Assembly (NCBI GenBank): GCA_017628025.1
Contig: JAGBZX010000001.1
Coordinates: 1,268-65,267 of the forward strand
DNA length: 64,000 bases
Source: Kiritimatiellia bacterium
Lineage (GTDB): Bacteria; Verrucomicrobiota; Kiritimatiellia; RFP12; UBA1067
Direction of reading: 5' to 3'
Shown here: positions 35,320 to 64,000 of the stretch, piece after piece
How positions within the stretch are numbered: the first letter of the stretch is position 1
Layout of the letters: the number at the start of each line of letters is the position of its first letter
Notes under the pieces: model-generated
Database searches by the model: none
The model's input: only the letters and a program-made list of their open reading frames with translations
What the model was told of the DNA's origin: nothing
Program-made: the position numbers and the translations under genes

Positions 35320-36357
35320 TTACTTGCTTTGGCTCTGCAAAAGTGTAACGCACGCCGTGCCAACAATGTCCTCGGCAGAACAACCGCGAGAAAGGTCGTT
35401 CATCGCTTTTGCCAAACCTTGAAGGTTCGGTCCAATAGCATCTGCTTCTCCAAGACGCTGTGCAATCTTGTAGCCGATGTTGCCGGCCTGGAGGTCCGGG
35501 AAAATAAAGACATTTGCATTGCCCTTAACTTCGCCATTAGGATTTTTTAGCTCACCAACCTGAGGAACAATCGCGGCATCAAACTGAAGCTCGCCGTCCA
35601 TCTTGATGCCCTTCTCAGCAAAGATAGGTTTGGCTAGTTCGACTGCCTTTTGAACCTTTTCAACCAATGGACCGCCTGCGGAACCCTTTGTAGAGAATGA
35701 AAGGTATGCTACTCTAGGTTCATTGCCGGTAAGGTCGCGATATGTCTCTGCTGTTGCTAGCCCAATATCCACGAGCTGTTCTGCTGTTGGATCAGGAATA
35801 ACCGCGCAGTCACCAAACGCTAAAACACTATCACCTGCAGGCGTAGGCTTTTTAAGATCCATAATAAAGCAGGACGAAGCAGTCTTGACGCCCTTCTGTG
35901 TGCCGAGCGTGTGGAATGCCGCGCGAAGCATATCGCCTGTAGAAGCAATAGAGCCAGCCACTAAACCGTTAACCTTGCCGAGCTTTACCATCATGCCACC
36001 AAAGTAAATGCGCTTAGTGCGAAGCGTATTTTCCGCAGTAGCAAGATCAATAATTTTCTGCTTTTCTGCTGGCTTTTTTGATTCCTTTGCATTCCAAGCT
36101 TCAAGATAAGCGCTTTCAAGTTCCGCATCACCTTTTGTGTAATCGATAACTTTGATATCGCGCTCAGCAAGTGAAAGACCTGCCTTGGCTTGAGCCGCTT
36201 CGATTTCTTCCGGAGTGCCAAGAACGATTGGCGTGCAGATTTTGCGGTCTACTAGCGCACAAGCTGCCGTAATAACGCGAGCATCCTGGCCCTCAGGAAG
36301 AACTATACTCCCATTAAGCTTCGACGCCTTTTCAATAATATTTTTTATAGCATCCAT
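35320..36357 (-). CDS. pta: Phosphate acetyltransferase (short form)
   Basis: 345 aa; PTA_PTB pattern including LSFSTKGSAGGP and GNANVFIFPDLQAGNIGYKIAQRL. Confidence 0.93.
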   Translation of the reverse strand: MDAIKNIIEKASKLNGSIVLPEGQDARVITAACALVDRKICTPIVLGTPEEIEAAQAKAGLSLAERDIKVIDYTKGDAELESAYLEAWNAKESKKPAEKQKIIDLATAENTLRTKRIYFGGMMVKLGKVNGLVAGSIASTGDMLRAAFHTLGTQKGVKTASSCFIMDLKKPTPAGDSVLAFGDCAVIPDPTAEQLVDIGLATAETYRDLTGNEPRVAYLSFSTKGSAGGPLVEKVQKAVELAKPIFAEKGIKMDGELQFDAAIVPQVGELKNPNGEVKGNANVFIFPDLQAGNIGYKIAQRLGEADAIGPNLQGLAKAMNDLSRGCSAEDIVGTACVTLLQSQSK

Positions 36358-49500: not shown

Positions 49501-52500
49501 CACCTTGGGGTCGGGTCGGTATGCGTTGGATTTGGCGATGTGAGGTTTGCCTTGAGCATTTCCTCATAGTTATTGATACCATCGCCATCAGGGTCAGCCT
49601 CAAGAGCACCGGCAAACCAAGGATACATCATCCAGTCGTAGATGAGAGGCAGCGTGATTGGCGTAGGACGAACCGCACTACCATTCTGCGGAGGATCCAT
49701 AAAGATCTTGGAACGATCGTAATCGGTATGAGTCCATTCATTGAATGCCGCGTTGAACAGTTCCGCTCTGCCGTAGGCCTCAGCAATAACGTCCTTAGAG
49801 CCTGCCTGGACAGAACCTAAAAGCGGGTTAAGACCATGGAACATTTCGTAGTAGTCGTCCATACCGTCACCGTCTGTATCCCAGTTGCGTGGGTCAGTAG
49901 AGACGTACGAAAGGTACGAAGGCATAAGGTAAATATCCGACATATTATCGGGCGTGGCAATCGGTGGCAAGAGGATTTCCTTCGCAGGGAGCGTAGGCTC
50001 GGTGTACGAGCGATCCCATGCGCACTCTGGTCTTGACATATAGCCGCAGAACTTCCAACCCATTTCGCTCCATGGCTGGCTGAATACGCCTGCTGCATTC
50101 ATTCTCTCCAATACGGCAGTTGCCTTGGAGCTGACGTTTGAAGTTACGACAGTGACGTAGTTTGTGACCATCACATTCGTAAGTTCATTCGTTGTAACAG
50201 CAATGCCGTTAGTGGTAACTACAACCTCAACACCCTCTGGGCCATAGACATAAGCAGCGACATTTACGCCATAACCAGAGCCGCTATGCGACATAGGCGC
50301 GTAGCCCATGAAGCCTTGAGCGTGACCAGCGCCGTTAGGACCTTCCTTGAGCATTCTGCCCATTAAGAGCGTCGTGCAATCGTCCCAACGGAAGTGACGA
50401 ACTGTCTGAATAAGATATTCCTGCCAGTTTTCAAGACCATCGTGGTCGAAGTCAACGTCACGAACAGTACCAAGGAGCGGGTCGAAGGAGTGAGCCGTCC
50501 ACTGATCACCTTCTACCTGTTCTTCAACTGGGTCGGTGTATGTATCGCCATACCATGTGCCGTCCATACCGCCAGCGAGGTAAACAACATTAAGCGTCTT
50601 GCCTGCGACACCGTCAGCAATCGATACCGTGTTAGAAGGCGCGCCTGTAGAGAGATCTGTTGGCGAACCAGCATACTGGCGTTCCCATGGGTCAGGAAGC
50701 GCGTCCTGGTCAGTGTCAACCGTGAGCGGGTTAAGACCACCGCCGCGGATACAACGCGAGCCGTCGTCAGTTGGCGTGCCGAAGATGAACGCTCTCATCT
50801 CAACGCCGCCTTCACCGAGAAGGTCATTACCTTCCTGACCGTCAGCGATAGAGTCGCGGTCAGTATCGGGCTGATTTGGATCTGTTGGGAAGAACTTGTT
50901 GAACCAACCCTTTGTGTTACCTGGGTGTCTGCTATAGATTGACTGGCAGCCACTGTAAGCATTGCAAGAATCTGTACCTGCGAATTCTGCCGCGTATACT
51001 AAGCCGTCATCATCTCTATCGAGTGGCAACATAAGGCCAAGAATTGGTGGCTCAAAGGCGGTTCTGGTTTCTTCATCGCCAGGAGCCTGACGAGGATTGC
51101 GATAGACGTAAAGTTCCCAGCCGTCTGGTACGCCGTCGCCATCACTATCTGCACCATGAGCTCTTACAACATTCTTGCCTTGATTTGCTGCTGCAAGCGC
51201 GTCAGCAAGAGCATTTGAAACTTCGGCGTCCGTCTTGTTATCAGTTTGATTTTGACCAGCCTGCGTTGTCGCATTCGAAGAGACATTTGTTGTCACATTA
51301 GTGCCAGTAGTATCAATAATCTCATCGTCTGTAACTTCTTCTTCAAGCGTTACAGTTGGAATAGTTGTCATAAGTCCGAGCCAACCCCATGTATTTTCTG
51401 GGTCCGGAGGCTCTTGCATGCCAGGATACATAATATTGAAGTGCTGACGGTAGCGCGCCAAGAGATACTCGTCATAAGTCGTGTATTCCTTCGTGCGCAT
51501 TGCCATACCAGCGATGTCAGAATCGCTAATTGGTTCCCAACGTGCGCCGACAAGTCCATCATCATTCATATACCACGCCGTGCGTGGATCAAAGCCATAG
51601 CGAGTATAAATCTGATCGTGGAGGAAGACGTAGCGATCAAGATAAAGTGGCGCGCCTGCTGGAATAAGGATGCCATCTCTTTCCTGAGGATAGCAAAGTG
51701 CCGCACCGAAAATCGTAGGATTTTGTGGATCATAATCATCCTCACGGCCATACTTAAGAGGCACTGGATTACCGCCATCAACCGTAGTCGTAAGCGATAC
51801 AACAGCTCTCTTAAGCTGGATACCATCAGCCTTAATGACATAGTATATGTTAGAAATTACTTCCATCTTGTCATTATAGACAGGCTCTTGCTTGTAGTCT
51901 TCACCTGCAACAAGCTGATTGTCGCAGTCAAAATACATAATACCTGTACTTGGATCGATGTAGGCGAGTCTTTGGAAGTGCTCGTAAGCCATGAAGTCGC
52001 CGTCCTCGTTTGTGTTCTTCGAGTTGGCAAGAGGATCAAGGCTCATCATAACTTCCCAACCATCGCACATATGGTCACCATCGGTGTCCCAGTGGCAGGG
52101 GTTCGTGCCGATAATAAGTTCTTCAATATCGGAAAGGCCGTCGTTATCGAAGTCGAACGTCTTTTCTGCCGCTTCATCAACGCGGCGTGAGCAAGGATTG
52201 AACTGCTCAACTACCAAACTTGCAGGAATTTCATCACCGGTTACAAGTCTAAGGTGATTGAAGCGTTCAAAGGGATATTTCTGACCTTCCTGAACCTTAT
52301 AAGCGCCACCTGGTACTAACACCTTAGCGGCATACCAGAAGAAATATTCCCAACCGTCATCAAAACCGTCAGAATCAGTATCTGCCTTAGTAGGATCAAG
52401 TCTTGATTGTTCGCCAGTTGGCTCTGGGCTCCACTTCTCAAGATCTTCTTTAGTAATAGTTGCCCAAGCTTCTCTTTCATCAACTGGCTTAGCAAGTTCC

Positions 52501-55500
52501 TCTGCGACTTCATCTGGAGTCTTGGAGTGAACTGTTGCGAAGTAAGCGTTAGTCTCAACTGGAGAGAACTCTGGATCGCTTGACGTAAGATCTGTAGCGT
52601 TAAGTCCTAAGCCATCGAGACCACGAATTTCTCTAAATGTTGTAAGAGCGACATTGCCAATTGGCGCATAGCTCCTCATAATACCGTCAACTCTCTGAAG
52701 CGTACCATTTGCCATATAGACACCGGGCATAAGGTCCTCATCAGGGTTGGAGGCTGCGATGTCGGTGAGGTCATTTTCGATTGAACTTAAGCCAAGAAGC
52801 TCAAGAAGCTTGCCGCCGCCCCATGTGCGGTGAACAAAGACGTCAGGAATGCCGTCTTGGTTAATATCACCAAGGTTATCCGCCGCGCGCCATTCGCGAG
52901 CGAAGATAGCCTCAATATGCGTATCGAGGTAGCTGCCGTCACCAGTGTATTCAGTAGGAAGTGTGACGCGGCCGCTCGAAACTGCACCAGGACGCTCTGG
53001 GAGAATTGCGCCATTGAGAACGGTGCTACCACCAGCGCCAGTATTGTCATTCTTATCCTGTGCTAGCCAGCAATAGAAGAAGCTGTCGTAACCCTCTCCG
53101 TCATACTTATAGCATGAGTCATCAGCAATATTAACAGTTGGATCAGTGTTATTGCCGCTGCCATCAATCTGCTGATCAAGCCCATTAGAAAGAGCTCCAT
53201 TATCAATGTCGCCGTCCTTATAACCAAAACCATAAACGGTCATGGTAATCTGCTTGCCGCAGTTCCACTTAAGCTGGAAGTTCTCAGCACTCGTGAAGCT
53301 TGCGCCAGAAACATAAGTGTGACCCTTGCCGATACCCTTAGCAAGAGCATACTTTTGAGAAAGCTGTGATGTTGAATCACCGCCGAAAGGACCAGTAGCA
53401 GTCGTGATAAGGAACTTAGAAGGCGTAACCTTAAATAGCCACGTATACGAGTGCGAGCCACCGTCCTTATCTTCAATCATAAGAGTGACGCTCTGCTCGC
53501 CTGCTGCCGCGCCAAAGTTCGGAACAAACGTGCCGCTTGCTGCGCCGGTAATATTCGTGGAGAACTGATTTGCGCACCCAGTGAACGTAACTTTAATACC
53601 ACCCTGTGTGCCATCTGCCCACTTGTTGGTGAAGTCGTCCATAACATCGCTCATGATCTTCCACGAAATCGGGTGACCAGTAGCAGCGCCACCGGCAACT
53701 TCCCAGTGGTTGGTGTTTTCTTCTGGTGTCACAGAGACAACAGGAGCTACGTTCTTAATATAAACACGGTGTGAGCTTGGCAGATAATAGTCATTTGCCT
53801 TCTCATTAGGTGTTGGTAGAAGATTCTCTGTTACAACGCTGGCCTTAATCTCAAAGCCGAAGATTTCAGCATTGTCTGTACCATCAAGCTCAATAGCGTT
53901 AATTACCTGCGTCTTCTTAGTTTTGCTGAGAGTTACGTAATAAACGCCTTCCTCCTCGCCTGGCTCAGTTGAAGCAAACGCGCTGTCAAGAAGCAGCTTA
54001 CCGGGGTTTGGCCTATTGCCTTCGCCATATTGAACGACTTCAAGTTTAACCTTCACATCGCCAGCATAGCGGTTATCAAAGTAATCTAAACTTACTGTGA
54101 ACCTGGCGCCGCGAGTATCGTTTTCATCAAGAAGCGTTTCATCAACTTCTGCTGTTGACCCTTCTGGACCAGTTACCATAACGTATGGCTGATTGAGAAC
54201 TTCAACACTTACCGACGAAGACTGGTCGGTATAACGCGACATATCTTTATCTTTTACTTTACACCTGAATGTATAAACACCAGCTTGAGTAAACGTGTAA
54301 TAGAAGTTCGTTGGGTTGTCGCCTGAGGGATTGCCTTGAATAATAAAGGGATCTTCTTCATAAAGTTCACCATCAAGATAAACAGACCACTGAACTCTGA
54401 ACTGCTCGTTTGTGTCAGTCGTTGTAAGGTCAAACTCACCTGGATCATCAACGAACGGACGGAAACGGCGCGTCATACCGACGGGAACCTTAGTAGGATA
54501 CGTTGAGCCGTCTTCGTATGCGTCAGCAGAATCGTTAACGTAAATACCTCTAATTACAGGCTCTACGTTGTAAACTCTAAAGTTAAGCTCTTCACTTGTT
54601 GGATAACCTTCGATCTTGTTATCGGGATTCCAAGACTTTGAAGTACAAAGAACAACCTGGAAACGGAATTTCGCGCCGTTCTTTGCGATATTGGCACCGT
54701 CAAGAGCGAGCATCGAGTTAGAAACCCAGCTCGTTACATTCTTGCCAATCTTGATGCCGCTAGTACCAGCTGCAGCAGTCTGCAGGTTAGTAATAATAAA
54801 GCTCTCGTCAAACTGCTTAAGATCGATTTCGTCTTCAGAGTAAAGGAACGCGTAAGCATCTTGACCAAGCTTAATCTGTTCATCACCAGAGAAGAAACCA
54901 ATCTGGAAGTTTACAGAATCACCTTCGTTGTATGTATTATCCTTGCCGTCAATCGTCTGGATAACAATCGTCGTTACATCCTTAACCGTAACATTAAAGG
55001 TGTAAATTTCACTCCACTGTTTACCGTAAGGTGAAAGAACCTGGATTGTGCCAGTCTTCTCGCCAGAAGTTGAATACGAAACAGAAGGAAGAGTTACGTT
55101 GCCTTCATCATCAATCGCAACAAGCTTCTCTTCCTTGTAAAAATACTTGCCGGGAAGAGTGCTACCATTAATCTTAAGCGTGTAGCCATTTTCCTCGTCA
55201 GTAATATCGGCAAAAATGTCAGAAAGCGTAATCGTAAGAGGCAATGAGGCGCCGCTTTCAACTGAATCTTCATGTTCAACGCCAGTAATAACTGGCTTTG
55301 CTGCCTTAATCGTGAAGCTTGCTGCATTTAGATTCTTAATGCCTGAGGCTTCCTGTTCGCCCGCCCCAAGCGAAGGAGTAAGGCGGATTGGCTTAGCCTT
55401 TGTACGAGTATATTCATCGCTCTTTAATGGGTAAATATACACATACTGCCTAGCAGTTGAGTTAGCTGTAAACTCTAGCGTGAGCGCCTGCTCAGACTCT

Positions 55501-56906
55501 TCTTTTGTAGGCGTCGTAGCTACGCTCTCGTCAGAAGCAAAGCGGAAATAATCTTCCCACTTGATATCAGCATCTGCAACACCATTAGTTGCATTGAAAG
55601 ATGGCGTAAGTGTTACGTGAATCGTCGTATCAACTGGCTGATTCAAGTAAACTGCAACCATGCTTTTAGAGTTTTCTAAATCGCCATCTGCAGTAACTTC
55701 AACTGGGTCAATTTCAAGATAAACTGAAGCCGACTCCTTCTCAGAGCACATTACCGGCACTTCGAGATAATCTTCCACGCGGTTGTTGTTCGTGTCATAC
55801 GTGTAATAGGGATAGGCGCTCAGGACGAGCTTAGCCTTATTCGGGTGCGCGACACCGTAAAGCTTAAATCCGCCAGTCGTGGAGCCGCGGCTAATCGTAA
55901 CCTTGGCCATCTGGACAGTCATCGTCTGCTTTTCAAGCTGCCCGCCCGCGCCGGCAACGATGTTCGTCACAATCGTAGTAGGCGTGCCGCCGCTGATCTT
56001 GACTGCCTTTTCGTCTGTTGACCAGACATAAAGCGTAATATTATCTTCTTCGACCGCGCTGTCCGCCACTAGGCTGGCTGTGCCGTAACCGATCTTTGTT
56101 GAAGCCTCATGAACTGTGCGCCACACGCCTTCCGAATCGTCGGTAGGCGGAATTTCCCACTCGGGATGGAAATCAACTGTCTGGACGTAGAAGCCGCATT
56201 TCTTGAGCGTGAAGTCGGTTTCACGACGACCCCATGGCTTCTGGTCAAGAACGTTATCGACATTTGAAGCGAAGACGAGATCAGCAAATTTGCTGTCATT
56301 GGCACCTGCAGAATCGTTGTTGCCATCACGAATCTGCCATTTGCCCTGATCGCCAACTTTAGTGGAAAGACGGTTGAAGACGTATTTTGAAGCACTTCCT
56401 GATTCCTGCGCGGGCATGTAGTTGCCGTCTTCATCTTCAACGGCCAACTTGATGGGCAGCGCGAAATCACCGGGCTTAGTGGTGTACTTAAAGACGAAAT
56501 CGCTGTAGATGTATCCGTCGTCCGGCTCATCAGGATTCACAGGAGTCAAGAACTGCGTTTCCACGAGATCCGCCCAGCGAAGCTCACCAGAAACATAGAT
56601 ACCGATCTGAAGCGGATACATAGCTTCGTCAAGCGTGGGTGAACCCCACGTGACATCGTTATGCACGAGCCTCCAGTGTGGATTATTAATCCCGTTTCTA
56701 ACAAGCCTCATGACGAAGTATAAGTCTTCACCAGCTTTTAGCGGCTCGCTTATTGTTGTGTAGGCGTCTGCCTGCACATACTGCAAGGTTCCTGCTTGTG
56801 TAGCTGGTTTACACGGACGGATTTCGTATATGTCCGCTCCGGTGGCAACTCCCGCCAGAGAAATAAGTCCAGCGAGTAATATTCCGGATTTCATTAGTGA
56901 TTTCAT
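37581..56906 (-). CDS. Giant secreted calcium-binding repeat protein (6441 aa): PKD-like + TSP3-like motifs + LamG + three super-repeats
   Basis: Uninterrupted 19,326-nt ORF. ATG 56906 has AAGGAG 8 nt upstream. Signal peptide MKSLMKSGILLAGLISLAGVATGA. About 30 DxDxDGxxDxWE-type motifs counted by eye. Residue numbering was checked against nucleotide coordinates at two points (V2679 = 48872; D5486 = 40451). Confidence 0.9.
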   Translation of the reverse strand: MKSLMKSGILLAGLISLAGVATGADIYEIRPCKPATQAGTLQYVQADAYTTISEPLKAGEDLYFVMRLVRNGINNPHWRLVHNDVTWGSPTLDEAMYPLQIGIYVSGELRWADLVETQFLTPVNPDEPDDGYIYSDFVFKYTTKPGDFALPIKLAVEDEDGNYMPAQESGSASKYVFNRLSTKVGDQGKWQIRDGNNDSAGANDSKFADLVFASNVDNVLDQKPWGRRETDFTLKKCGFYVQTVDFHPEWEIPPTDDSEGVWRTVHEASTKIGYGTASLVADSAVEEDNITLYVWSTDEKAVKISGGTPTTIVTNIVAGAGGQLEKQTMTVQMAKVTISRGSTTGGFKLYGVAHPNKAKLVLSAYPYYTYDTNNNRVEDYLEVPVMCSEKESASVYLEIDPVEVTADGDLENSKSMVAVYLNQPVDTTIHVTLTPSFNATNGVADADIKWEDYFRFASDESVATTPTKEESEQALTLEFTANSTARQYVYIYPLKSDEYTRTKAKPIRLTPSLGAGEQEASGIKNLNAASFTIKAAKPVITGVEHEDSVESGASLPLTITLSDIFADITDEENGYTLKINGSTLPGKYFYKEEKLVAIDDEGNVTLPSVSYSTSGEKTGTIQVLSPYGKQWSEIYTFNVTVKDVTTIVIQTIDGKDNTYNEGDSVNFQIGFFSGDEQIKLGQDAYAFLYSEDEIDLKQFDESFIITNLQTAAAGTSGIKIGKNVTSWVSNSMLALDGANIAKNGAKFRFQVVLCTSKSWNPDNKIEGYPTSEELNFRVYNVEPVIRGIYVNDSADAYEDGSTYPTKVPVGMTRRFRPFVDDPGEFDLTTTDTNEQFRVQWSVYLDGELYEEDPFIIQGNPSGDNPTNFYYTFTQAGVYTFRCKVKDKDMSRYTDQSSSVSVEVLNQPYVMVTGPEGSTAEVDETLLDENDTRGARFTVSLDYFDNRYAGDVKVKLEVVQYGEGNRPNPGKLLLDSAFASTEPGEEEGVYYVTLSKTKKTQVINAIELDGTDNAEIFGFEIKASVVTENLLPTPNEKANDYYLPSSHRVYIKNVAPVVSVTPEENTNHWEVAGGAATGHPISWKIMSDVMDDFTNKWADGTQGGIKVTFTGCANQFSTNITGAASGTFVPNFGAAAGEQSVTLMIEDKDGGSHSYTWLFKVTPSKFLITTATGPFGGDSTSQLSQKYALAKGIGKGHTYVSGASFTSAENFQLKWNCGKQITMTVYGFGYKDGDIDNGALSNGLDQQIDGSGNNTDPTVNIADDSCYKYDGEGYDSFFYCWLAQDKNDNTGAGGSTVLNGAILPERPGAVSSGRVTLPTEYTGDGSYLDTHIEAIFAREWRAADNLGDINQDGIPDVFVHRTWGGGKLLELLGLSSIENDLTDIAASNPDEDLMPGVYMANGTLQRVDGIMRSYAPIGNVALTTFREIRGLDGLGLNATDLTSSDPEFSPVETNAYFATVHSKTPDEVAEELAKPVDEREAWATITKEDLEKWSPEPTGEQSRLDPTKADTDSDGFDDGWEYFFWYAAKVLVPGGAYKVQEGQKYPFERFNHLRLVTGDEIPASLVVEQFNPCSRRVDEAAEKTFDFDNDGLSDIEELIIGTNPCHWDTDGDHMCDGWEVMMSLDPLANSKNTNEDGDFMAYEHFQRLAYIDPSTGIMYFDCDNQLVAGEDYKQEPVYNDKMEVISNIYYVIKADGIQLKRAVVSLTTTVDGGNPVPLKYGREDDYDPQNPTIFGAALCYPQERDGILIPAGAPLYLDRYVFLHDQIYTRYGFDPRTAWYMNDDGLVGARWEPISDSDIAGMAMRTKEYTTYDEYLLARYRQHFNIMYPGMQEPPDPENTWGWLGLMTTIPTVTLEEEVTDDEIIDTTGTNVTTNVSSNATTQAGQNQTDNKTDAEVSNALADALAAANQGKNVVRAHGADSDGDGVPDGWELYVYRNPRQAPGDEETRTAFEPPILGLMLPLDRDDDGLVYAAEFAGTDSCNAYSGCQSIYSRHPGNTKGWFNKFFPTDPNQPDTDRDSIADGQEGNDLLGEGGVEMRAFIFGTPTDDGSRCIRGGGLNPLTVDTDQDALPDPWERQYAGSPTDLSTGAPSNTVSIADGVAGKTLNVVYLAGGMDGTWYGDTYTDPVEEQVEGDQWTAHSFDPLLGTVRDVDFDHDGLENWQEYLIQTVRHFRWDDCTTLLMGRMLKEGPNGAGHAQGFMGYAPMSHSGSGYGVNVAAYVYGPEGVEVVVTTNGIAVTTNELTNVMVTNYVTVVTSNVSSKATAVLERMNAAGVFSQPWSEMGWKFCGYMSRPECAWDRSYTEPTLPAKEILLPPIATPDNMSDIYLMPSYLSYVSTDPRNWDTDGDGMDDYYEMFHGLNPLLGSVQAGSKDVIAEAYGRAELFNAAFNEWTHTDYDRSKIFMDPPQNGSAVRPTPITLPLIYDWMMYPWFAGALEADPDGDGINNYEEMLKANLTSPNPTHTDPTPRWFTDSGMPMSFTAQYYTQGAPVRNVMFPDSELPFKLTSLATSDEYYQNAIMGSMREDPAAPQQAFLTSFEENEGYDTDNDWVADGREIIKTVKVATDPLDFSDPERHQAAWFDGTDSFMMTRTQAYRGSDANDMFKQFTVEAWICPERKGIVQTILDRAVLYSGNTAVNPGAVIRSNFRLGIDEQGRVFGLFDNADALESGSNEPVSCQRVTGQMLELGKWVHIALTYNGKKLTLYVNGQIADSAETTLIPANGVVFVEQDIGSGLLTGLYDFMPTTLYLGARPIHTPSLENRGDPLVVDKVSYNTIREYFGGYIDEVRVWDGARTSAEILGNYRKRFTMADAKDNRISAYQVWLNRGTRNDNDGLPMLPPELLMHYSFTSLPGATDPAWVSKTPSGFNKQILDITEVDYTKMQDMDFTGCYDVARPELPNLVEVSCNLKGGAYGTYKLGEKTALSYGWWNECETKSRVYNDITVVPWVENTVAHLPAMDSSTMDSLYYSEALAASYVDPTDSGVERFIFPNAANPYSFFNYGADRYLTLFRRNRLVEQMGTKYEPILNLYRYEVRSRLVGPSDLLPMGGAYARRAKEMWDGVPADAWEYTAADDNANGISDWWEEYARGNYGNITWDQDINWNTLIIYHGAEMPAYQAFLIDLAMGLQPNGQFDSDFVSTADTNANNLPDWWEDLFGTKGGADDDDDNDGLSNYNEYLISFGSSPYGIKNGFPILNPLKNRTGRDQLVTDYYLSGPDHAILLSDRHISPNSYIGQIVSDTDFVENWWEKKYNYSFASSKKYDPDYDKDEDGWSNWAEARAFIWRGSFAADVVDRFIDGDNHIICYPEPAIGVRLSYNGVQDTSSKGLVVRTFSGYTPRVDATFTVPAYGVARSKIIGGYYADNVIRGFLTPGNLIPAEVRFERASMSAERTYRWHYVDGLGERFEYSGTYEEYRRQLLFNPALILDDIVLEWVEFGKTLSDADGNKGDIVFAGTDSAGNSVSVNIGKINYRTGEYSIDLAAVESATGESFEGNIFQVIWSYRIGNEYPQAIWLSEPVSGRVKEGKNTVEAFIDMDGDGVFTPGIDPYGAVHDVEIGWHKTKELIIELKDESSAIARVNVADAQGAGNAAQGATQDEITTTVVVRRTSINGSTIFNDKTVPVRTLLTKTFVNDDRSYITEADVISANTPDLDWKWLLKDATKLGIAVEDLRTAGYEITKRSILTDGTVTNDVISTFENEFLASRSIAIAKEPLATAPVYRAYPTMSFQTGDETMKAYRLQIATSTNKTDVIYDSGIKILPGRIGYTVGTLVHTVTPEFYWNCAVTTNGSYYVHDASNYYWRVALLNSKFNTAEFDSDWSKWTAFQMDVSNVNRYPLLPTGYGKCGAVVRYFGCARTNELSGAVVVEAFASADFTGMPLDRKRYTDVSRLSSIADITTTDVVLGGIEPGEVYLRAYIDLNNNGRRDAWEPWGYANRVGTDAVDIYTPDAIQVTDEVNAFEKKIIYIEDPDTNRNEIPDCTEAEFFSTSVTAEVVGNDSDGDGLSDEDEASFGTDPSMWDSDGDGMPDGWEAIFADMDPLFADAGEYTDGDVMAFATMDAKLVTIKSNAPDAELVTYIMKTDDTLPVGGDLAKGLEVYNSFEYPVIEDGVEVKYIGRGGLITIDDPAPITNIVDDVTNVVQYVNRVVNVYDAKVALLHAQVYAEFGFNSLTAVNATNAVNTKVFTALDKYLLLRYFASLGICEEADVNQKNLWKSYSLVPYNVDYDEDGVPDGWELYVMFGKNDMNLESFTNGKAISCWKFDDREIDEDADNLKLVNEYDRGNMPTDPWNDHTVSSVFNDSDAYFYDIKTPEAQFSDVDNDGLSNIQEYKAREYGLVLDVRKLMTDTVTNDYFRQVVVAGNTHYIGEVVADHDFIEDSIESDFGYNRGLYDATKDTDKDGWSNWSEIRSFVETGVSYIADVISNEVIRSNISSEEYDYIRNNYAVLEDNISVSTSMDAAGNWTSSISGSIRYLDTQTVMRVQSNYAGVPYPTINVKLAYSGEKDIDAGAFVIEAYASANMQKKLCWWVVPQSDYEGSMAHNGYLSMSLKIPQHGYLKEGDIHFAAYADINGDGMYNAAEPFGIVKSIPVGYSRAADFTIELTDVTPVVPRIDILAATSDRTVLEGSTTNTSNVVFGSTPAAPVAPGATAGTAGGTTSSIDGEQIRVRIVRTAINGDTTAKKRTLLNRIYTVANRSFIHEGDFYTALKNDIDPYLAADAKSMGLAPSAIADATYEVILGDAKYKAGQTNENVFATFKNEYPSTRSSGLPIAPSANSRGVVTAARPSFEFNADTQAYTAYALQVSRDENFGDVVFATTNLLSGAVKGVVTAEPRFFAEDGATYFWRVALFNAKFSSLEKLSSQDVVWSEAAKFTVDLSGEATANVKYYGPSATAGNIVVEAYSTPDFAGIAKSRVVGSSLVDGAASITLSGLPNGEYYLLAFIDRNGDGVRQSYESWGYACNVGTQDAEIWTPVSVTINADAVFDPAVATVYIEDTDINQNFIVDVLDNEDDLKAAEEAISSESDDDSSNDTSDRDGDGLKGFEEEEIGTDPDSVDTDGDGMWDGWEVWAGTDPLDAEDADTVVDGDVMAYSEVVMTTVRTRSTLTGTEEIYVLPEGAALPVIGDNMNDKVLNKAFEYAGGMYGIGASVTIPSTAKYILAGISNTTDNVVSSYLFTEDAAINVGDNVTGRQAYEIASVDGGIYTLGTLTNLNVDVTIIEPTSSNVVSTVTAVDVTLGENRAIEVNTEAKVVLLHNQVYRKYGFNSKTANGYIASEDRINTKEFTALDKYLLIRYYEAMGLCDERVVNAAADWASWSLKPGIIDSDWGDSEGRYGDGLPDGWELYTGYSPWDFADRTTDDDSDSLPLYNEFDRGNSPSDPNTVDTDGDGVTDKHAFYYHLKGEDARKDADGDGLSNYAEYLVSEVFNFVKLDPNNPKTDGSVVDYFRKVGEMYLGEMFTDHDRVGDDWEYQFAMAGVDGMLYANPGEYDPMIDRDNDGWSNYAEFRSNTDPDVDASSGIDGFIRIEHPVPVIEMNLVYNGAENLAGSVTFKAWNEKANFDMTKQPDAVWTVGNTVEMTTSTQLGQTTATEVEPSTKYIGINPKVRKTYYLGPGVVQAGTFRLFFKDTGFVWVNPETLEATSIGLVEEAQWYYFVVDKEGKLVTLGGEFGGETEVGTIDYKTGKVTIDFANPALNELWLGDPEMAEQDENSSDRNNNVTDYQSIRLGSAYVKIKWQSKSVSANTAGTYYLSDPDQGYAGIKEGFTTFTAEFTPSAGGNAPSAGSGMGGIGGMGATATATKTVYGVVRNVEVGWQGAKVTIELSEHSAITPRIDLAAGTSDRPDLAAEGYYTTDSRINTETNMLVEAAISEQSTRVRVARHAINGYPCYKLWALPTIVMDKYFTTAARSMLTEADFLGNGQFDIDWAKFNAEVMNNKYVADAFNYNALNITNVSYLVVIGEGKSSFESEDDMEEIAASKFLVTRRFDRICATPQLDNVSQIVYGARPTFKWSMPGESVWAKQFGSTYTAFRLQITDSSDGLVWDSGICRAPQMNSVGQFVWTAPICAGEKLANGKTFLTDSSYKWRVSMYNAKFSTESTTKWSSYSTFATMVNAQQDVNDHGYSAIDVSVKYAGSSVVLAKYKGAGTNGTVRVQAFTTADFSGTPVAETFATNDVENISLNTANAKLKGLPANGDFFVRAFIDMDGDGELSAFEPWGYAGEMVVLNNELVKSPIVGVWIEDSDTDGDWLPDAWEYASAGWRGKWESVKEVKSQTSIGSDKVILPEGFVTITNKIASGVFDAAISAGLPGASLTVFQSADFAAALIGLDVSKMSSISAIRDAIEKKIVPDTLKISSMTLDTAGKKVILGVDASVADTIAGIKLRDIFGIESGKNYATVTLKIYTKATLAEADWTLKSEITVNIGADEAVVEVPLTETLDCKSGYYKVEVVQ
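38139..47429 (-). repeat. Three diverged protein-level super-repeats of ~1090-1150 aa (SR1 ~43983..47429, SR2 ~40719..43982, SR3 ~38139..40718)
   Basis: Collinear landmark strings recur with periods of 1149 and 1088 aa. DNDGLSNYNEY / DNDGLSNIQEY / DGDGLSNYAEY occur at aa 3166, 4315 and 5403. The others are D.DGWSN[WY][AS]E; YYWRVALLNSKF / YFWRVALFNAKF / YKWRVSMYNAKF; and DAWEPWGYA / QSYESWGYA / SAFEPWGYA, each followed by [IV][YW]IED.D[TI]. No DNA-level identity is evident. Confidence 0.8.
48492..49184 (-). other. LamG / concanavalin-A-like lectin domain within the giant protein (aa ~2575-2805)
   Basis: FDGTDSFMM...FTVEAWICPERKG...LGKWVHIALTYNGKKLTLYVNGQ...LYLGARP...FGGYIDEVRVWDGARTSAEI follows the Laminin_G_3 pattern (F-T-x-E-x-W ... 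W-x-H-x-A-x-T-Y-x-G ... L-Y-V-N-G ... G-x-I-D-E-V-R-x-W). Confidence 0.8.
53418..53753 (-). other. PKD-like domain 2 within the giant protein (aa ~1052-1163)
   Basis: HPISWKIMSD...IKVTFTG...GEQSVTLMIEDKDGGSHSYTWLFKVTPS. Confidence 0.4.
54186..54566 (-). other. PKD-like domain 1 within the giant protein (aa ~781-907)
   Basis: QFRVQWSVYLDGELYEE...NPTNFYYTFTQAGVYTFRCKVKDKDMS...SVSVEVL resembles the PKD pattern (Y-x-F-x-x-x-G-x-Y-x-V-x-L-x-V-x-D). Confidence 0.45.
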
Positions 56907-56919
56907 TATTTTCGTCTCC

Positions 56920-57300
56920 TTACTTCGTCTTACCGTTCAAATCAATATCCTTAAGCATGCGATTGCGTACCGTCGCTTCACTTTTGCGGCGAAGCACGTC
57001 AAATTTCTTTGCATACTGAAGTTCCTGTGCTTTTAAAGCGCGTACTTCCTCGCCCTTGCCTTCAGGGTCTTTCTCTGAGGCAGCTTTGAGTTTAGCACGC
57101 AAAATCTGAAGCTCTTTAACTAACATCTTCTGCTCTTTCTGAAGAGCATCAAGTTCTTTTATATACTTTTTATCCTGCATTCTCTTCTCAACAGGCTCAC
57201 GCGTATCTGGAGCTTTGGGCGCTACCAAAATAGCCAAGAGTGCGCCAAGTATCGCTAGCGCAACTATAATAGCTATCGTTAGAATTTTCTTCTTACTCAT
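56920..57300 (-). CDS. Single-pass membrane coiled-coil protein (hypothetical), coupled to the giant gene
   Basis: 126 aa with TM ILTIAIIVALAILGALLAILVA, then a charged heptad-like segment KELDALQKEQKMLVKELQILRAKLKAA. Its ATG overlaps the upstream stop (ATGAGTAA), and its stop lies 13 nt before the giant ATG. Confidence 0.7.
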   Translation of the reverse strand: MSKKKILTIAIIVALAILGALLAILVAPKAPDTREPVEKRMQDKKYIKELDALQKEQKMLVKELQILRAKLKAASEKDPEGKGEEVRALKAQELQYAKKFDVLRRKSEATVRNRMLKDIDLNGKTK

Positions 57301-58771
57301 AAGTATTTTCCTTCTTCATCGGCTCAACCTCAATTGGCTGACGCTTTGTGTTGATGCCCCACGAATAAAACACAGGATACTCTAAGTACTTGTCCCAACC
57401 TGCTGTAGAACCAGGCGATTCGCTAGATCTCGGGTCGATAATTTCAATAACCGACTGGAATTCCTTCTCGTGACCCTTGGGGTAGAACGAGTTTTCATTA
57501 AATACAAACCACCTAAGCGGCACCCAGTTTGGTGAAGTGTGCGCAAAATCAGTCTTGCCGTTGCTAAGGATGCCGCGGACGTTGAACGTCGGGCCATTCC
57601 AATCAGAAGACTTAACGAAATTAAGCGAGTGCGAACCGACATCGCGCCCACGCATTACTCGCGGCGGATATGCTTCGTAAGCATATTCTGGTGAATTATT
57701 CGAAATGCACATATAAATAGTACCTATTTCATTACCACCTGTTGCGCCATTCTTAGGTTGAGGAACGGTAGAAAAGCCTGCCTTAAAATACATATTAGAC
57801 TTTGTAGGATCAATATCTAACCAGTACATCTGCGTAAGCGTAAGGTTAGTAACTATTGTTCCGCTATAATTTACAAACTTCGCTAGTTCAATCTCTTCGC
57901 TTTCTGGGTGCGCCCAATCTTGACCAAAGACATCCTTGCTATTTCTTAGCCAATCCATAACAGCAGGCGTAAAGGGATCATCAGGATCTAAGCCATAATC
58001 AAACAACTTCTTAGAAACACCAGCAAACGCCGTAACTGTAACATTGTTTGATGCGCCCTTACCAACTTCAACAGAGTATGTACGAGGCTCTGGCAGCGTC
58101 GTAAAGACAACTTCCTTGCCATTAGTAGTTACGCTCTTTAATTCATACCACTTGTCGACGGTATAAGTAATATTTGTGCCAGTAAGGCTACCCTTCTTAA
58201 AGACAATCATCACATTGGAGTTTGACTTAACAACATCGCCAAATGTCTGCTTGATGTAAGGCAATGTCTGGTCGAGATTTGAGAAAATAAAGATATCTTC
58301 ACCGTTTGGCGTTGGGTGATCAGAGCTAATCTGCTGACTAGCGTTGATTCTGCCAGGCGTCTGAGCCATGATATTATTCCAAGTTGCCGCGGTTTCACCG
58401 TGCGACTCAAACACACCTAACGAAGCACCAACTGGACCGTTGTCATAGCCCGCACCAAAGAACGCCGTCTGCTTGCCGGTCTTTTTAATAATTTCATTCA
58501 TACGCCCAGCTACATAATCAACATCACCATTAAGCGCATAACCTTCATACTCAGCCCAAAGGTTTGTGCCGGCTACGACTATTTCATGCTCGATAATGCC
58601 GCTAGGTCTTACGAGCTGAACTGCAAAAGGATAAATCGTGCTAGCTTCACCTGTCGCACCAAGAACGGAACCAGGCTTGGAGATATTCCAAACACCATCA
58701 AGTTTACCATTCTCGCGCGTAAGCTCCTTCTTGTTAAGAGTGTATGGGCTTGCAACTACATGGAATACATA
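57293..58771 (-). CDS. 3' segment (492 codons) of a large beta-rich protein; no start codon for the first 90 codons
   Basis: The track calls 57293..58501 from the first ATG. The frame is open for 90 more sense codons up to TAA 58774..58772, with no ATG/GTG/TTG (every triplet checked). The extension reads YVFHVVASPYTLNKKELTRENGKLDGVWNISKPGSVLGATGEASTIYPFAVQLVRPSGIIEHEIVVAGTNLWAEYEGYALNGDVDYVAGR. Confidence 0.7.
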   Translation of the reverse strand, partial: YVFHVVASPYTLNKKELTRENGKLDGVWNISKPGSVLGATGEASTIYPFAVQLVRPSGIIEHEIVVAGTNLWAEYEGYALNGDVDYVAGRMNEIIKKTGKQTAFFGAGYDNGPVGASLGVFESHGETAATWNNIMAQTPGRINASQQISSDHPTPNGEDIFIFSNLDQTLPYIKQTFGDVVKSNSNVMIVFKKGSLTGTNITYTVDKWYELKSVTTNGKEVVFTTLPEPRTYSVEVGKGASNNVTVTAFAGVSKKLFDYGLDPDDPFTPAVMDWLRNSKDVFGQDWAHPESEEIELAKFVNYSGTIVTNLTLTQMYWLDIDPTKSNMYFKAGFSTVPQPKNGATGGNEIGTIYMCISNNSPEYAYEAYPPRVMRGRDVGSHSLNFVKSSDWNGPTFNVRGILSNGKTDFAHTSPNWVPLRWFVFNENSFYPKGHEKEFQSVIEIIDPRSSESPGSTAGWDKYLEYPVFYSWGINTKRQPIEVEPMKKENTYE

Positions 58772-59015
58772 TTAGATGTAGACCACTTTGAGTCCTTTTT
58801 CGCCGGCAGGTTATCTGTGCCAAACCTTGCCGCGATATTCGTAACTATCACGTCATCTGCGCGCTCTAAAAGACGAACCTCCCAATCATCAAGCGCAGAC
58901 TCAACGGGAGCCGCAATCTCGACATACTGACACGTCGCGTCAGTATTTTCGTCAGTTACATTGTCAAACATACCAAAGACATTAACCTCGTTAATCCAAG
59001 CCCAATCGGGAGCGA
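58576..59015 (-). other. Lamin-tail-domain (LTD)-like region spanning the frame change
   Basis: The first half lies in the upstream frame (INEV ... QYVEIAAP ... DDWEVRL). The second half lies in the downstream frame (YVFHVVASP ... EASTIYPFAVQLVRPSGIIEHEIVV), matching the LTD pattern I-x-E-V ... [FY]-[VI]-E-[LI] ... L-x-G-W-x-L ... then a final strand pair. Confidence 0.45.
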
Positions 59016-62000
59016 CTGTATCAAGAATATTAAACGCGGCAAACGTTGCATCTTTGGTGACCTTGTCGCGGTTGTAATCAATTGGCGAGTACCACTCAGG
59101 CGCGCGCCACATCGAGTTATCAAGATAGTTTGTAATTGGCTGAGAGAGGTCTGACTTATTGTAATAAACAACTTCAAGCATATACTGAACAACCTCACCA
59201 GCGACAGTAGAAGCAGGAATTACATTATCACCCAATCCTAAGTTAGTTGAACGGAAGACTAAGTTAGTCCCCTCAACGCGAGTAAGCTGAACGCGGAACT
59301 TCTTCTTGCCTTGAGGAGCATCATAATCCTTCCAGTTATCGTATCCCCACGGAAGAATGCCCTTGTACCAGCTAAGGAACACCTGTGGCGGACGGGCAAC
59401 AAAATCAACTTCGTCTGGGAGCTGAGCTGCGTAAACTTCGCACTGAACACCCCAGCTCTCGTTGCAAAGCGGCTGCTCCTTAGCCGTTGGCACGCCTTCA
59501 ATTACCGTCAAATCGCTCATATGATTGCGGAAGGCGCCAACATTGCGGAACTTAACAGCAGGATCTACCGCCTCGCACACAAGGAACTCATCGATAATAA
59601 CGCGCTCAACATTATCACCGTAAAGTGGCACGCCTAGCCTAAATGCCGAGAAGGTGCTGCCTTGATTTGCCTTATAAGAATACGTCTCAAAGGCATTATT
59701 CGTAATTGAAAACGACTGTAAAGCCTCCCATGATTCATCTGCCGCGTCAGTAGTCTTGCCTTTACGAGCACCGTAGAGGACGAGCTTAGCAGCAGCTGGA
59801 CCATTTTTCGTCTTAAACTTACGAGCTTTAAACGAAACTTCACCAACGATATCGTCTGTAAACGTAGGCGACTGAATGAACGGCATATGGCGCTCGTAAA
59901 CAATCTCTTCCTCTTCGCTTTCGCCGTCAGGGAGAATCCTCGCCTCCGGGTTCTTATACGAGTTATTAATCGCCATTGAACGCCCAGCAAAAGCGAGATT
60001 TTCAGAGAAGTCAGGTAAATACGTGCGCCCCTCAGCATTTGCGCCGTCCCAATGCTCCCAATCGATATCTGCGCCCTCGGCGTTCTGGCCTACGCTACGA
60101 ATGTTCCAGCCCCACCAAGCGCGCTCATCAATGCGCGGCTCGTCAGAACAAGAAACCTCCGTAATGCGAACCTCACCAAACTCCGTCTTGTCAACGCTAT
60201 TGGCGACATTCGTAACTACAGTTGGGTCAACGACTAACCTAAACATACCCTGAACGCCATGTAAGCCGGTGTAAACTGTACGCGAGCCAGCCTTGCGTTC
60301 TTCATCTGAAAGAACTGAGAAGTTGAAGTTAGAAATCGTGTGCCAAATCTCGCTATTATGAATATCGAGGTTTGCCGGCGAAGCAGTAGTGTAGTTAATA
60401 TTCGTAGCAATCTGAAGAAGAATTACCGTGTTCTTCTGCGCATCAGCATAACTAAAGCTAAACTTACCCAAACCTTCGCCGCGGCCATACATTCCGTCAA
60501 AGAGCGGGCTCTTAATCGCTGAAGGTCTTGGGCCTGTCGTGCGACGAGCTGAAAGCAAGATACCCTTCTCTTTAATCCAAGATGAAGAGAAGGTGAAGTT
60601 AGTATAGTTGTACTGAGTATCTCCGACTGCGATTCTATTGTCTCCGCCGTTAACATAGTCGTATGCATTAGCCCAGTCATCGCCGCGCCACTGCGAAACA
60701 ACAATCTCGTCGATTACAACATCAACTCTAACATCATCAACCTCGCCACCGACCTGGAAGCGAATCTGCGAATCATCATTGAGATAAAAGTTCTTCGAGA
60801 AATCAAGCGTCGAGCCAGATGTACCAAACGAATTAAACTCATTCGTCCAAACTGTGCGCCACGCGCTTTCAGTGCCGTCGTAAGATGGGTTTCTAAGAGC
60901 AACATAAAGCTTTTGAGAAATTGGCGAAGCCCTAAAGCCGAAATCGTTGGCATCTGTTCCGTTAAACCTCTCCATGCGCCCATACTGATAATACCAATAC
61001 TCGTTAAGTATATCATCGCGGCACGAATACGATTCAGACGGCAATTGAACTTTACTCTTGTAATTACTCGTGGTAGCCTCTCTACTTACTACAGCAGCTG
61101 CTTCGTAGTAATAAGGAGCTAAAAAGATACCTTCAGAGTTTGCAGATAATAAACCATATGTACCATTTTTATGAACATTGCTACTGTCAGTATACTTCAA
61201 AGAATACCAAACCTCACTAGTCTGTGCAAAATCTGTTTGCACGGAACTGCCGCTCATCGCAGCTGCACCTAACCTTACACCAGCCCAAATAACAACAGAG
61301 TTTGCCGTGTTTGAAACTGAAACATACATCGGTAAATACTTTTGGTTGGAAATTGGCTGAGTGATATCGTTCTGGAAGTTATCACCGTCCTCATTGCTCT
61401 TCTGAAGCGAAACTACCGTATTTGTCCATGCCTTAAGCTCTTTAGAAGTATACTTACCGGTAGAGTCACAGCTCCACTTAAGAAGTACTAACCTCTGGCC
61501 CTTGTTACCGCGAGAATTATTCTTATTATGCACATAGTTGCCTTTGTCCTGCGGGTGATCTGCAATCTGCTCCCATCTTGCTTCATAGCAGCCACGCCCA
61601 GGGATATAGTGCGCTATGAGCGAGAGCGATGCATTACCGCGATATGCTTCGTTCTTCTTACCGTCAAAAGCGACACGAGCTGCGAACGTATAGTTCGTCA
61701 TATTCTGGCGTTCACGAGCACCTGCGTCGTAGTATGAGAAATTCTCGAATTCAATGCTTTGACCGAGTCTAGCGTTATAGCTAATAGTATCAATACCACG
61801 AGGCGTAGGAGTCTGAACATACTCTACTCCGCCGCGTCCACAGCCTTCCATCTGAAGTGCCGCGCCGCTCTTTGTATCACGATACTTCTCTGCTACCCAC
61901 ATACCCTGCTTGATATCCCAGCCGTTATACCAGTTATCAGCAAATGTCTCATATGCTGGATAACCAGAGGCAACAGTAAACTGATTGCCCGTCGGGAAGC

Positions 62001-64000
62001 TTAGCAACCACCTTGGGCTTTCTGATGGCATATCAAGCCATGTATCAAAGTTTTCAATATACGTCTTTTGCGTTGACGAAACGCCTAGTCTCTTGTCTGT
62101 TTCATCATCACGGCCAACGAAAAGCTGTAACTGGCTAGAAGCGGCGTCATTCCACTTGTTGAAGTCCTGATAATCAGCATGAACGATCGTAAGCCCATCT
62201 GTGCGATCGTCAATCTGGAACATCAAATAACCAGTCTTGGCATCATTAGGGACCTGGCTCCATTCTCCATCTTCACGAACAACAAGCGAGCCCGTCACTG
62301 GTACATTGTTAGTTGTGAACTGATCGCCCCATACTTCGATGTTTTGCTGATACTCAGTAGCTCCATTCTCCTGACGGTTCATCGCAAGAACCTTGTAGTA
62401 GAACTTACCAACGCTATTTGTCGGCGTCTGGACATAGCCGCGCCACGTATGGTTTTTAACTACTTCCATCACATTTGTAAGAGTTGTTCCCCCTTCGCTA
62501 AACTTATACTCAATCTTAAGCGCTTCATACTCACTTATGCCTTCTCTTAGGCGAATAAACCAATCTGCGCGCGCCTTTGAGTTACTCGACATCTTTGAAG
62601 TATAACCAGTCTTAAAGTCTGTAATCTCTTCAGTATATCCTGGCACCCCTAAGCCCGTACCAGAATAATCCACATACTCATAGTATGGGGCTTGGACAGT
62701 ACCTGAGAAGTAAAATTCAACATCACCTACGCCGCCGGGGAGATTTAACGGCTCAAACGCCTTAAAGCCATTACTTGGGTTAAGCTCAACGCTGTACCAT
62801 TCGCGGCCAAAATCAGGCGTTGCACGCTGCTCAAGGTAACGCCAGCGGTAATGCATCTTAGCACTTGTTATAAATTTCGTAGCGTCCGCTGTCTCTAACA
62901 TGCTATTAGTGTAGAACGAAAGAGCAGCGCGCCCATAAAGCTCATCAGTAGCTGAAGGATAAGCTACCGTCATTGCTCCTGCCCAACCAGTAATTTCTTT
63001 GCCAACCTTAGCCGTGTCGTTCGTTCCATACGGCATAAGTTCAGCATACATTGCAGGCGTAGAAACGATAATATTATCAAGAATAATAAAGTTACCATCG
63101 TCAGGCTGATACTCATTCGAAGCAGCCGCCTTAGTGCGCTCAATCTTAAAGCGCACCGGTCCCTTAATATTAAGCGGAACGTAAATACGGTAGAAATTGT
63201 TCGTTGTGCCGCCATTTCTTACTAAAAGCGCCAATTCATTCGTGCCGCCTCTTGAGTTTTGCGCTTCAGCCTTAAACTCTGTCGTTCCATCTCGCTTAAG
63301 TGCAAAAATTTGAGCTTCCTTCCAGTCGGCGTTTGAGTAACTATTAGTAAGCTCAACAGCTTCATCTGTCGGCATCGTTACGCCATCCTTGCAAGTAGTG
63401 GCATAATAAACCTTAATCGCGCAGTTCTCTGCCGTAGCTGCTGTTAATTGGTTAACCGCGTCAAAGTATATTGTGCCGATACCATCTTCAAAGCACTTTG
63501 AAAACACAACCGCGCCAAGACCGTCATAATCTGAAACCATATTGCGCATTACCAGGGTGCCGACGTTTCGAGCTTGAAGTCCAACCAAACCACTACCATT
63601 TATATTTCCAGATGTAGAACTCCAAGGCAAATAGTTTTCTGTACCTACTGTAGCTCCAAGAGCAATAGTATTTGCTCTAAAGGTATTACCATGGCGGCAA
63701 TTAATAAGATTCCAAAGTATCTCGCCCTTATCCTGCTCAGTACCTTTTGTACGAAGCATAAACTCATAACCTTTCTTCATATTCTTGTAATCTGAAGATG
63801 TTGGCGCAAAAGTATCATTCGAAGCATCAAAATCCCACCATGTTGAATATGATGGAGAAGATCTGTTATATCCCTGATTTGTAATCGGGCAACTAGTATT
63901 TCTATCATCATTCATCAAAAGTATTCGCCCATTATCACCGCCACCGCCAGAAAGAATATCTTGCTGGGGAGACCTATCGCGGATAATAAACTCAATTGTG
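58756..64000 (-). CDS. Large beta-rich protein, 5'-truncated by the window (at least 1747 aa here); jelly-roll-like modules and the start of a lamin-tail-like domain
   Basis: The track start (63918) is a TTG, but the frame is open to the window edge (...TIEFIIRDRSPQQDILSGGGGDNGRILL-MNDDRN). Repeated module boundaries: G-x-[IF]-x-F-x-[AY] openings (GIGTIYFDAV, GIDTISYNARL, GLGKFSFSYAD, VGEVSFKARKF) and hydrophobic-D-[EN]-hydrophobic closings (NFIILDNIIVS, VDVVIDEIVVS, ERVIIDEFLVCE). The C-terminus reads WINEVNVF...QYVEIAAPVESALDDWEVRL. Confidence 0.8.
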   Translation of the reverse strand, partial: TIEFIIRDRSPQQDILSGGGGDNGRILLMNDDRNTSCPITNQGYNRSSPSYSTWWDFDASNDTFAPTSSDYKNMKKGYEFMLRTKGTEQDKGEILWNLINCRHGNTFRANTIALGATVGTENYLPWSSTSGNINGSGLVGLQARNVGTLVMRNMVSDYDGLGAVVFSKCFEDGIGTIYFDAVNQLTAATAENCAIKVYYATTCKDGVTMPTDEAVELTNSYSNADWKEAQIFALKRDGTTEFKAEAQNSRGGTNELALLVRNGGTTNNFYRIYVPLNIKGPVRFKIERTKAAASNEYQPDDGNFIILDNIIVSTPAMYAELMPYGTNDTAKVGKEITGWAGAMTVAYPSATDELYGRAALSFYTNSMLETADATKFITSAKMHYRWRYLEQRATPDFGREWYSVELNPSNGFKAFEPLNLPGGVGDVEFYFSGTVQAPYYEYVDYSGTGLGVPGYTEEITDFKTGYTSKMSSNSKARADWFIRLREGISEYEALKIEYKFSEGGTTLTNVMEVVKNHTWRGYVQTPTNSVGKFYYKVLAMNRQENGATEYQQNIEVWGDQFTTNNVPVTGSLVVREDGEWSQVPNDAKTGYLMFQIDDRTDGLTIVHADYQDFNKWNDAASSQLQLFVGRDDETDKRLGVSSTQKTYIENFDTWLDMPSESPRWLLSFPTGNQFTVASGYPAYETFADNWYNGWDIKQGMWVAEKYRDTKSGAALQMEGCGRGGVEYVQTPTPRGIDTISYNARLGQSIEFENFSYYDAGARERQNMTNYTFAARVAFDGKKNEAYRGNASLSLIAHYIPGRGCYEARWEQIADHPQDKGNYVHNKNNSRGNKGQRLVLLKWSCDSTGKYTSKELKAWTNTVVSLQKSNEDGDNFQNDITQPISNQKYLPMYVSVSNTANSVVIWAGVRLGAAAMSGSSVQTDFAQTSEVWYSLKYTDSSNVHKNGTYGLLSANSEGIFLAPYYYEAAAVVSREATTSNYKSKVQLPSESYSCRDDILNEYWYYQYGRMERFNGTDANDFGFRASPISQKLYVALRNPSYDGTESAWRTVWTNEFNSFGTSGSTLDFSKNFYLNDDSQIRFQVGGEVDDVRVDVVIDEIVVSQWRGDDWANAYDYVNGGDNRIAVGDTQYNYTNFTFSSSWIKEKGILLSARRTTGPRPSAIKSPLFDGMYGRGEGLGKFSFSYADAQKNTVILLQIATNINYTTASPANLDIHNSEIWHTISNFNFSVLSDEERKAGSRTVYTGLHGVQGMFRLVVDPTVVTNVANSVDKTEFGEVRITEVSCSDEPRIDERAWWGWNIRSVGQNAEGADIDWEHWDGANAEGRTYLPDFSENLAFAGRSMAINNSYKNPEARILPDGESEEEEIVYERHMPFIQSPTFTDDIVGEVSFKARKFKTKNGPAAAKLVLYGARKGKTTDAADESWEALQSFSITNNAFETYSYKANQGSTFSAFRLGVPLYGDNVERVIIDEFLVCEAVDPAVKFRNVGAFRNHMSDLTVIEGVPTAKEQPLCNESWGVQCEVYAAQLPDEVDFVARPPQVFLSWYKGILPWGYDNWKDYDAPQGKKKFRVQLTRVEGTNLVFRSTNLGLGDNVIPASTVAGEVVQYMLEVVYYNKSDLSQPITNYLDNSMWRAPEWYSPIDYNRDKVTKDATFAAFNILDTVAPDWAWINEVNVFGMFDNVTDENTDATCQYVEIAAPVESALDDWEVRLLERADDVIVTNIAARFGTDNLPAKKDSKWSTSNMYSM

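Follow-up and report, generated by a model that had tools for sequence, protein, structure and literature searches.

A one-nucleotide deletion found on a single contig splits a giant-protein gene of a gut Kiritimatiellia bacterium within a predicted lamin-tail-like fold

INTRODUCTION

In the 64,000-nucleotide (nt) stretch of Kiritimatiellia DNA analyzed here (the window), a very long reading frame on the minus strand stops just as a second frame opens, and the second frame continues for 90 codons without a start codon before the next annotated gene begins. This arrangement raises the question of whether the locus represents one gene broken by a deletion or by an error of assembly, one gene whose two frames are joined by programmed recoding, or two genes in their own right. 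A preliminary description of the locus, made from the sequence, had proposed the first two of these readings (i.e., a genuine 1-nt deletion or an assembly indel), and had argued against programmed −1 recoding. Here, we compare the window with conspecific contigs, with homologs from other species, and with a structural model of the region spanning the break.

RESULTS

A long open frame without a start codon follows the premature stop

Re-reading the sequence confirmed the layout given in the preliminary description, namely the TAG and TAA stops, the ATG at 58501, the 90 intervening codons, and the −1 relation of the two frames. The upstream ORF, which exits the window at 64000 after 1,747 codons, ends ...KDSKWSTSNMYSM* at a TAG stop (58758..58756), and the minus strand near the break reads TCT ACA TCT AAT ATG TAT TCC ATG TAG (S T S N M Y S M stop). 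The second frame opens after a TAA (58774..58772), begins YVFHVVASPYTL..., carries 90 sense codons without ATG, GTG, or TTG until ATG 58501, and runs on past that codon to a stop at 57293, for a total of 492 codons (Table 1). Relative to the first frame the second is shifted by −1, as a 1-nt deletion would produce. Across 37581..64000, the longest other off-frame stop-free run comprises 155 codons, and a 492-codon open frame is therefore not a product of chance. The lack of start codons is itself unremarkable for the interior of this gene, in which ATG, GTG, and TTG together make up 3% of the codons and five further stretches of at least 89 codons are likewise start-less. The earlier size of at least 1,747 amino acids (aa) for the upstream ORF holds inside the window, but the scale had to be corrected, since the full upstream piece is 2,458 aa long and the intact gene encodes 2,946 aa.

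Table 1. Features of the split gene and its neighbors (positions are those of the window)
Feature	Positions	Strand	Description
Upstream fragment	58759..64000	-	Last 1,747 codons of the 2,458-aa truncated product MBO5642421.1 (J6S51_00200)
Premature TAG	58756..58758	-	Follows three out-of-frame codons, Y-S-M
Start-less 90 codons	58502..58771	-	Intact residues 2456-2544 plus one extra out-of-frame Tyr codon at the 5' end (58771..58769)
402-aa CDS	57293..58501	-	MBO5642420.1 (J6S51_00195); identical to the C-terminus of intact homolog P0055
Deletion site	58768	-	Single G (C on the + strand) versus GG in every other conspecific contig
Lamin-tail-like beta-sandwich, seven strands	58571..58998	-	Intact residues about 2379-2521; AlphaFold2 model
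126-aa ORF	56920..57300	-	N-terminal hydrophobic helix and charged coiled-coil-like tail; overlaps the end of the broken gene by 8 nt
6,441-aa giant protein	37581..56906	-	Laminin_G_3, TSP3 repeats

One G is missing relative to all conspecific contigs

Conspecific contigs were retrieved by means of the neighboring 126-aa ORF from independent ENA and Logan assemblies of ruminant gut metagenomes. Where the window reads AAT ATG TAT TCC, AAT ATG GTA TTC (N-M-V-F) is found in each of the seven conspecific contigs spanning the site, and blastn alignments placed the sole gap at window position 58768 against L001-L006, L011-L015, and L018. When the G is put back, the sequence becomes AAT ATG GTA TTC CAT GTA (N M V F H V), in agreement with the family consensus SNMVF.V. 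The missing G is one of the GG pair in ATG-GTA (codons 2455-2456) and lies inside the 19-nt overlap of the two frames. The one extra G in the conspecific contigs thus bears out the options of a 1-nt deletion or an assembly indel; the earlier remark that the overlap holds no homopolymer longer than 2 is true, with the refinement that the indel does sit in a 2-nt GG run.

More specifically, five of the seven spanning contigs represent the haplotype of the window (100% identical over the compared stretches), and the other two, about 97.6-97.9% identical over these stretches, come from a second strain that also carries GG. Contigs from ERZ27256945, SRR12529139, SRR12529145, and SRR12529112 showed 100% identity to the window over 8-17 kb, the one gap aside. 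Wherever the upstream gene is complete in conspecific contigs, it forms a single ORF of 2,944-2,946 aa. Over the full 64,000 nt, contig ERZ27256945:k141_555282 differs from the window at two positions, i.e., the gap at 58768 and a single-nucleotide polymorphism (SNP) at 25013; the latter is a synonymous third-position change in codon 230 of rho, at a site that varies between strains too. Three alleles occur at position 25013: the window has CGA, k141_555282 has CGT, and the second strain has a further variant accompanied by an adjacent change.

Two second-strain contigs end close to the deletion site: ERZ27256943:k141_425829 (L017/L008) at 58722, 46 nt downstream, and ERZ28653953:scaffold_1187 (L016/L007) at 58755, 13 nt downstream. 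The closest known strain SNP past the ends of these two contigs is at 58809, and the two ends could reflect coincidence or an assembly-graph branch arising from nearby heterogeneity.

Exact-sequence look-ups in a protein collection gave a consistent picture. The 2,458-aa product (ending STSNMYSM) and the 402-aa product were found on one contig only, that of an NCBI Kiritimatiellae metagenome-assembled genome (MAG), and the intact 2,946-aa product was found on four contigs; the window accordingly belongs to that MAG contig, to which the deletion allele is private within this collection. The same look-up returned no record of products from alternative downstream starts (373, 358, 323, 306, or 305 aa). 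An exact-pattern scan of the GTDB species-representative genomes for either allele returned no match, and the locus of this species is therefore absent from the representatives.

Homologs are continuous across the break

We used the conceptual fusion of the two frames (400 upstream plus 492 downstream residues) as the query of a protein search, which retrieved 54 proteins from Kiritimatiellae and Verrucomicrobia metagenome bins. Most of them span 97-100% of the fusion in one protein at 40-45% identity, and their alignment across the junction reads ...SN[M/Y]VF[R/H]V... unbroken. Over a 273-residue region centered on the junction, 53 of 53 homologs aligned without a break. Likewise, every one of the 80 loci kept from GTDB species representatives gave a single in-frame, stop-free match across the junction. 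The continuity of orthologs had been put forward earlier as the comparison to make, and all of them (53 proteins, 80 species loci, and 7 conspecific contigs) proved to lie in one frame with no gene boundary.

The protein family is widespread in gut Kiritimatiellia and Lentisphaerae MAGs. Members also occur on bins labeled Azospirillum sp., Lachnospira hominis, Faecalibacterium prausnitzii, Methanomethylophilaceae archaeon, and Gemmiger sp.; the oddly labeled GTDB loci (L060, L074, L108, L110, and L116) all come from "cleanbin" MAGs, and their contigs are probably mis-binned.

The break falls within a predicted lamin-tail-like fold

An AlphaFold2 model built from the intact 273-residue junction region together with 23 homologs (pLDDT 85.3, pTM 0.84) folds as one compact unit. 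Its strands lie at model residues 35-40 (WINEVN), 59-65 (QYVEIAA), 74-81, 84-92, 111-117 (MVFHVVA), 159-164 (AVQLVR), and 170-177, and the beta-sandwich is followed by a helical and strand (alpha/beta) subdomain, the whole forming a compact unit of 220 residues. The frameshift falls at model residues 111/112, the start of the fifth strand, and the truncated product therefore ends in half a domain. The proposal that one gene is broken inside a domain is hence upheld, every homolog being continuous and the break lying at the start of a beta-strand in a compact modeled domain.

The preliminary description had specifically taken the two frames for the two halves of a lamin-tail domain (LTD), a claim that finds some support in the fold but is not supported by sequence. 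In a Foldseek comparison against the PDB, the top 10 matches were all Ig-folds of lamin A/C or lamin B1 (E 1.2e-3 to 2.4e-2, probability 0.93-1.00), although these matches are modest (TM 0.45-0.61 normalized to the lamin chain, rmsd of 5-7 Å, 10-16% identity). The opening motif, INEVN ... QYVEIA.P ... L.GW, resembles the usual start of a bacterial LTD. However, Pfam searches of both pieces and of the fused junction detected no family at E<=1, so that the LTD profile, suggested earlier as a check on the fused sequence, gave no match at that threshold; nor did any of 24 family members match LTD at E<=10. Searching PDB sequences with a profile of the junction region returned no lamin; the only match, to dihydrodipicolinate reductase (E 0.38), was set aside as due to chance.

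The conserved block of this region reads AYNILDTVAPGWAWINEVN ... QYVEIA.P ... GW ... TN ... FG ... SNMVF.V ... DG.LDG.W ... QLVRPSGIVEHE ... GTN ... TPGRIN. It occupies intact residues ~2375-2600 (window ~58350..59010), is kept in more than 130 homologs, corresponds to no Pfam family, and is a candidate for a new domain model.

Elsewhere in the intact protein, homolog P0055 carries Gly_rich_2 (PF21722) at residues 72-316 (E 1.4e-20), and NCBIfam gave no match to the intact protein. The N-terminus, which lies beyond the window, appears signal-peptide-like when read by eye. The 347 residues that follow the junction unit were modeled as beta-rich domains (pLDDT 88.5). An adhesin- or pilin-like fold was considered for this C-terminal segment, but matches were weak (best E 1e-2) and no assignment was made. 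Overall, the intact 2,946-aa protein looks like a giant secreted or surface protein.

Neighboring genes

The 6,441-aa ORF starts 13 nt after the 126-aa ORF in the same orientation, and the segment 37581..57300 together with the broken gene looks like an operon of giant secreted proteins, in which case the premature stop could exert polar effects on the 126-aa and 6,441-aa genes. A segment in the N-terminal part of the 6,441-aa ORF (56072..56541) is indel-rich and strongly divergent between the two conspecific strains, with a net difference of 9 nt that keeps the frame, and the DNA on either side shows about 99.5% identity; the segment resembles a hypervariable patch of the giant protein.

Directly downstream of the acetate kinase, PTA, and giant genes, a minus-strand cluster (~26239..35366) has Pfam matches to Amuc_1102, PilM_2, Amuc_1100, a TSP3-repeat protein, and a secretin, and it resembles the Amuc_1098-1102 type IV pilus-like locus of Akkermansia.

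A private deletion, in cells or in the assembly

Taken together, the gene is almost certainly a single one that carries a private, nonprogrammed 1-nt deletion; it is an ordinary frameshift-disrupted gene, arising from recent mutation or from assembly error. Reading the window directly, translation would lose its frame after Met2455, proceed through Tyr-Ser-Met, and then stop, and the remaining 491 codons would stay open in the −1 frame with no initiation site of their own.

We lean toward the view that the deletion exists in cells, as a very recent truncation allele in the source Kiritimatiellae population, where it would be either fixed in the sampled population or segregating beside the intact allele. 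On this view, cells would produce a secreted protein of 2,458 aa that ends in half a lamin-tail-like beta-sandwich, without the ~490 conserved residues at the C-terminus; it would most likely represent a loss-of-function or altered-surface variant.

An appreciable chance, though short of even, falls to an assembly or consensus artefact, in which the cells carry ATGGTA and the G was lost in assembly, read pre-correction, bubble resolution, or co-assembly. The deletion occurs in a single assembly only, all other contigs of the same haplotype have GG, and per-run assemblies of three samples with an otherwise identical haplotype are intact; moreover, the lengths of the MAG contig (68,083 nt) and of the ENA contig (68,084 nt) suggest the same underlying graph. 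On the other hand, the run at the site is just 2 nt, with no long homopolymer, and the accompanying SNP in rho codon 230 looks like genuine population variation. In de Bruijn assemblers, a path becomes the consensus only with repeated read support, and random Illumina deletions at a single position are not known to enter the consensus. Apart from the deletion, comparison with ERZ27256945:k141_555282 revealed no indel in 64 kb of this short-read assembly, which also speaks against an artefact; the assembly is therefore not noisy, and a noisy long-read assembly as the source of the window was ruled out. The samples behind the conspecific contigs were sequenced with PCR-free Illumina NovaSeq 150-bp reads and assembled with MEGAHIT or IDBA-UD (PMC8199421), a design that favors a real allele. 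From the conspecific contigs we infer that the MAG itself derives from that study, which ran IDBA-UD with --pre_correction and also produced co-assemblies (PMC8199421); at these steps a G could have been lost. Finally, the 492 downstream codons show no differences, i.e., no secondary decay; this absence is consistent with an artefact but fits a very recent mutation equally well.

Natural on/off variation, recoding, and separate genes

It is unlikely, in our estimation, that the truncation allele segregates with the intact allele as natural on/off variation, maintained or repeatedly selected in a ruminant-gut Kiritimatiellae population (e.g., under phage or host pressure on a giant adhesin-like surface protein). 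A branch of the assembly graph near the site is a possible reason why two second-strain contigs end 13 and 46 nt from it. A repeat-mediated phase-variation locus was ruled out, as the indel is not accompanied by a simple-sequence repeat.

We regard as very improbable the possibility that programmed −1 ribosomal frameshifting or transcriptional slippage restores the full-length protein. Although the second frame is shifted by −1, is open throughout, and overlaps the first over a short distance, this 19-nt overlap (TAATATGTATTCCATGTAG) contains neither an X XXY YYZ heptamer nor a run longer than 2. Furthermore, the RNA of 58660..58790 folds in an ordinary manner (minimum free energy of −32.1 kcal/mol versus −27.5 on average for shuffled sequences, z = −1.28), and 21 of 200 shuffles reached a fold as stable. 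The split is also absent from the 7 conspecific contigs, the 53 homologs, and the 80 species loci, and no lineage therefore depends on recoding here. The earlier argument against recoding, made from the lack of a slippery heptamer, accordingly gains two more supports, namely the lack of significant structure and of conservation of the split.

Least probable of all, to the point of being negligible, is that two truly separate genes exist, the second starting from ATG 58501: although NCBI lists two CDSs (MBO5642421.1 and MBO5642420.1) and one weak promoter-like match occurs at 58737..58709, this reading is refuted because all orthologs are continuous, with a gene boundary here in no relative, and, in addition, the 90 codons before ATG 58501 are conserved protein sequence, that ATG lies inside the compact modeled unit, and the count of promoter-like matches around the junction is below the shuffle expectation. 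The promoter/terminator scan of this region found no terminator-like site within 1.2 kb of the break.

DISCUSSION

The main value of resolving this locus is an annotation correction for two GenBank proteins. In the public annotation, both halves are entered as independent hypothetical proteins, the 402-aa entry beginning at an internal Met of the intact protein. Since MBO5642421.1 (2,458 aa) and MBO5642420.1 (402 aa) both derive from a single 2,946-aa gene, the two entries need to be combined or given a frameshift flag; the 402-aa "protein" lacks a start codon that belongs to it. The break itself is nothing new. A real deletion would be a further case of lost function in a giant surface protein of an uncultured gut bacterium, a common kind of variant that causes no surprise. 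As a by-product, our analysis points to a conserved C-terminal module in this Kiritimatiellia/Lentisphaerae family that holds a predicted lamin-tail-like fold missed by the Pfam LTD model.

Three known systems invite comparison. The LTD (PF00932) occurs in bacterial surface proteins, and the region at the break resembles it in its predicted Ig-like beta-sandwich, for which lamin Ig-folds are the 10 best PDB matches. It differs from the LTD in that none of the 24 family members matches the Pfam model, in its modest TM scores and its identities of 10-16%, and in that an additional alpha/beta subdomain packs against the sandwich within the 220-residue unit.

Phase-variable contingency loci switch on and off by slipped-strand mispairing. 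The locus resembles them in that a large gene for a surface protein is frameshifted, and in that nearly identical genomes carry either the intact or the broken allele. In contrast to such loci, it has no repeat tract or long homopolymer, the intact allele offering only GG; the off allele was seen once, and no relative carries an indel here.

An ordinary frameshift-disrupted gene in a MAG, either an incipient pseudogene or a null allele, shares with this locus a 1-base indel relative to intact orthologs, a stop a few codons on, an open but start-less remainder, and an annotation as two CDSs. Unlike a typical gene of that kind, the locus described here shows no further decay at all, and the event that split it is therefore either extremely recent or not biological.
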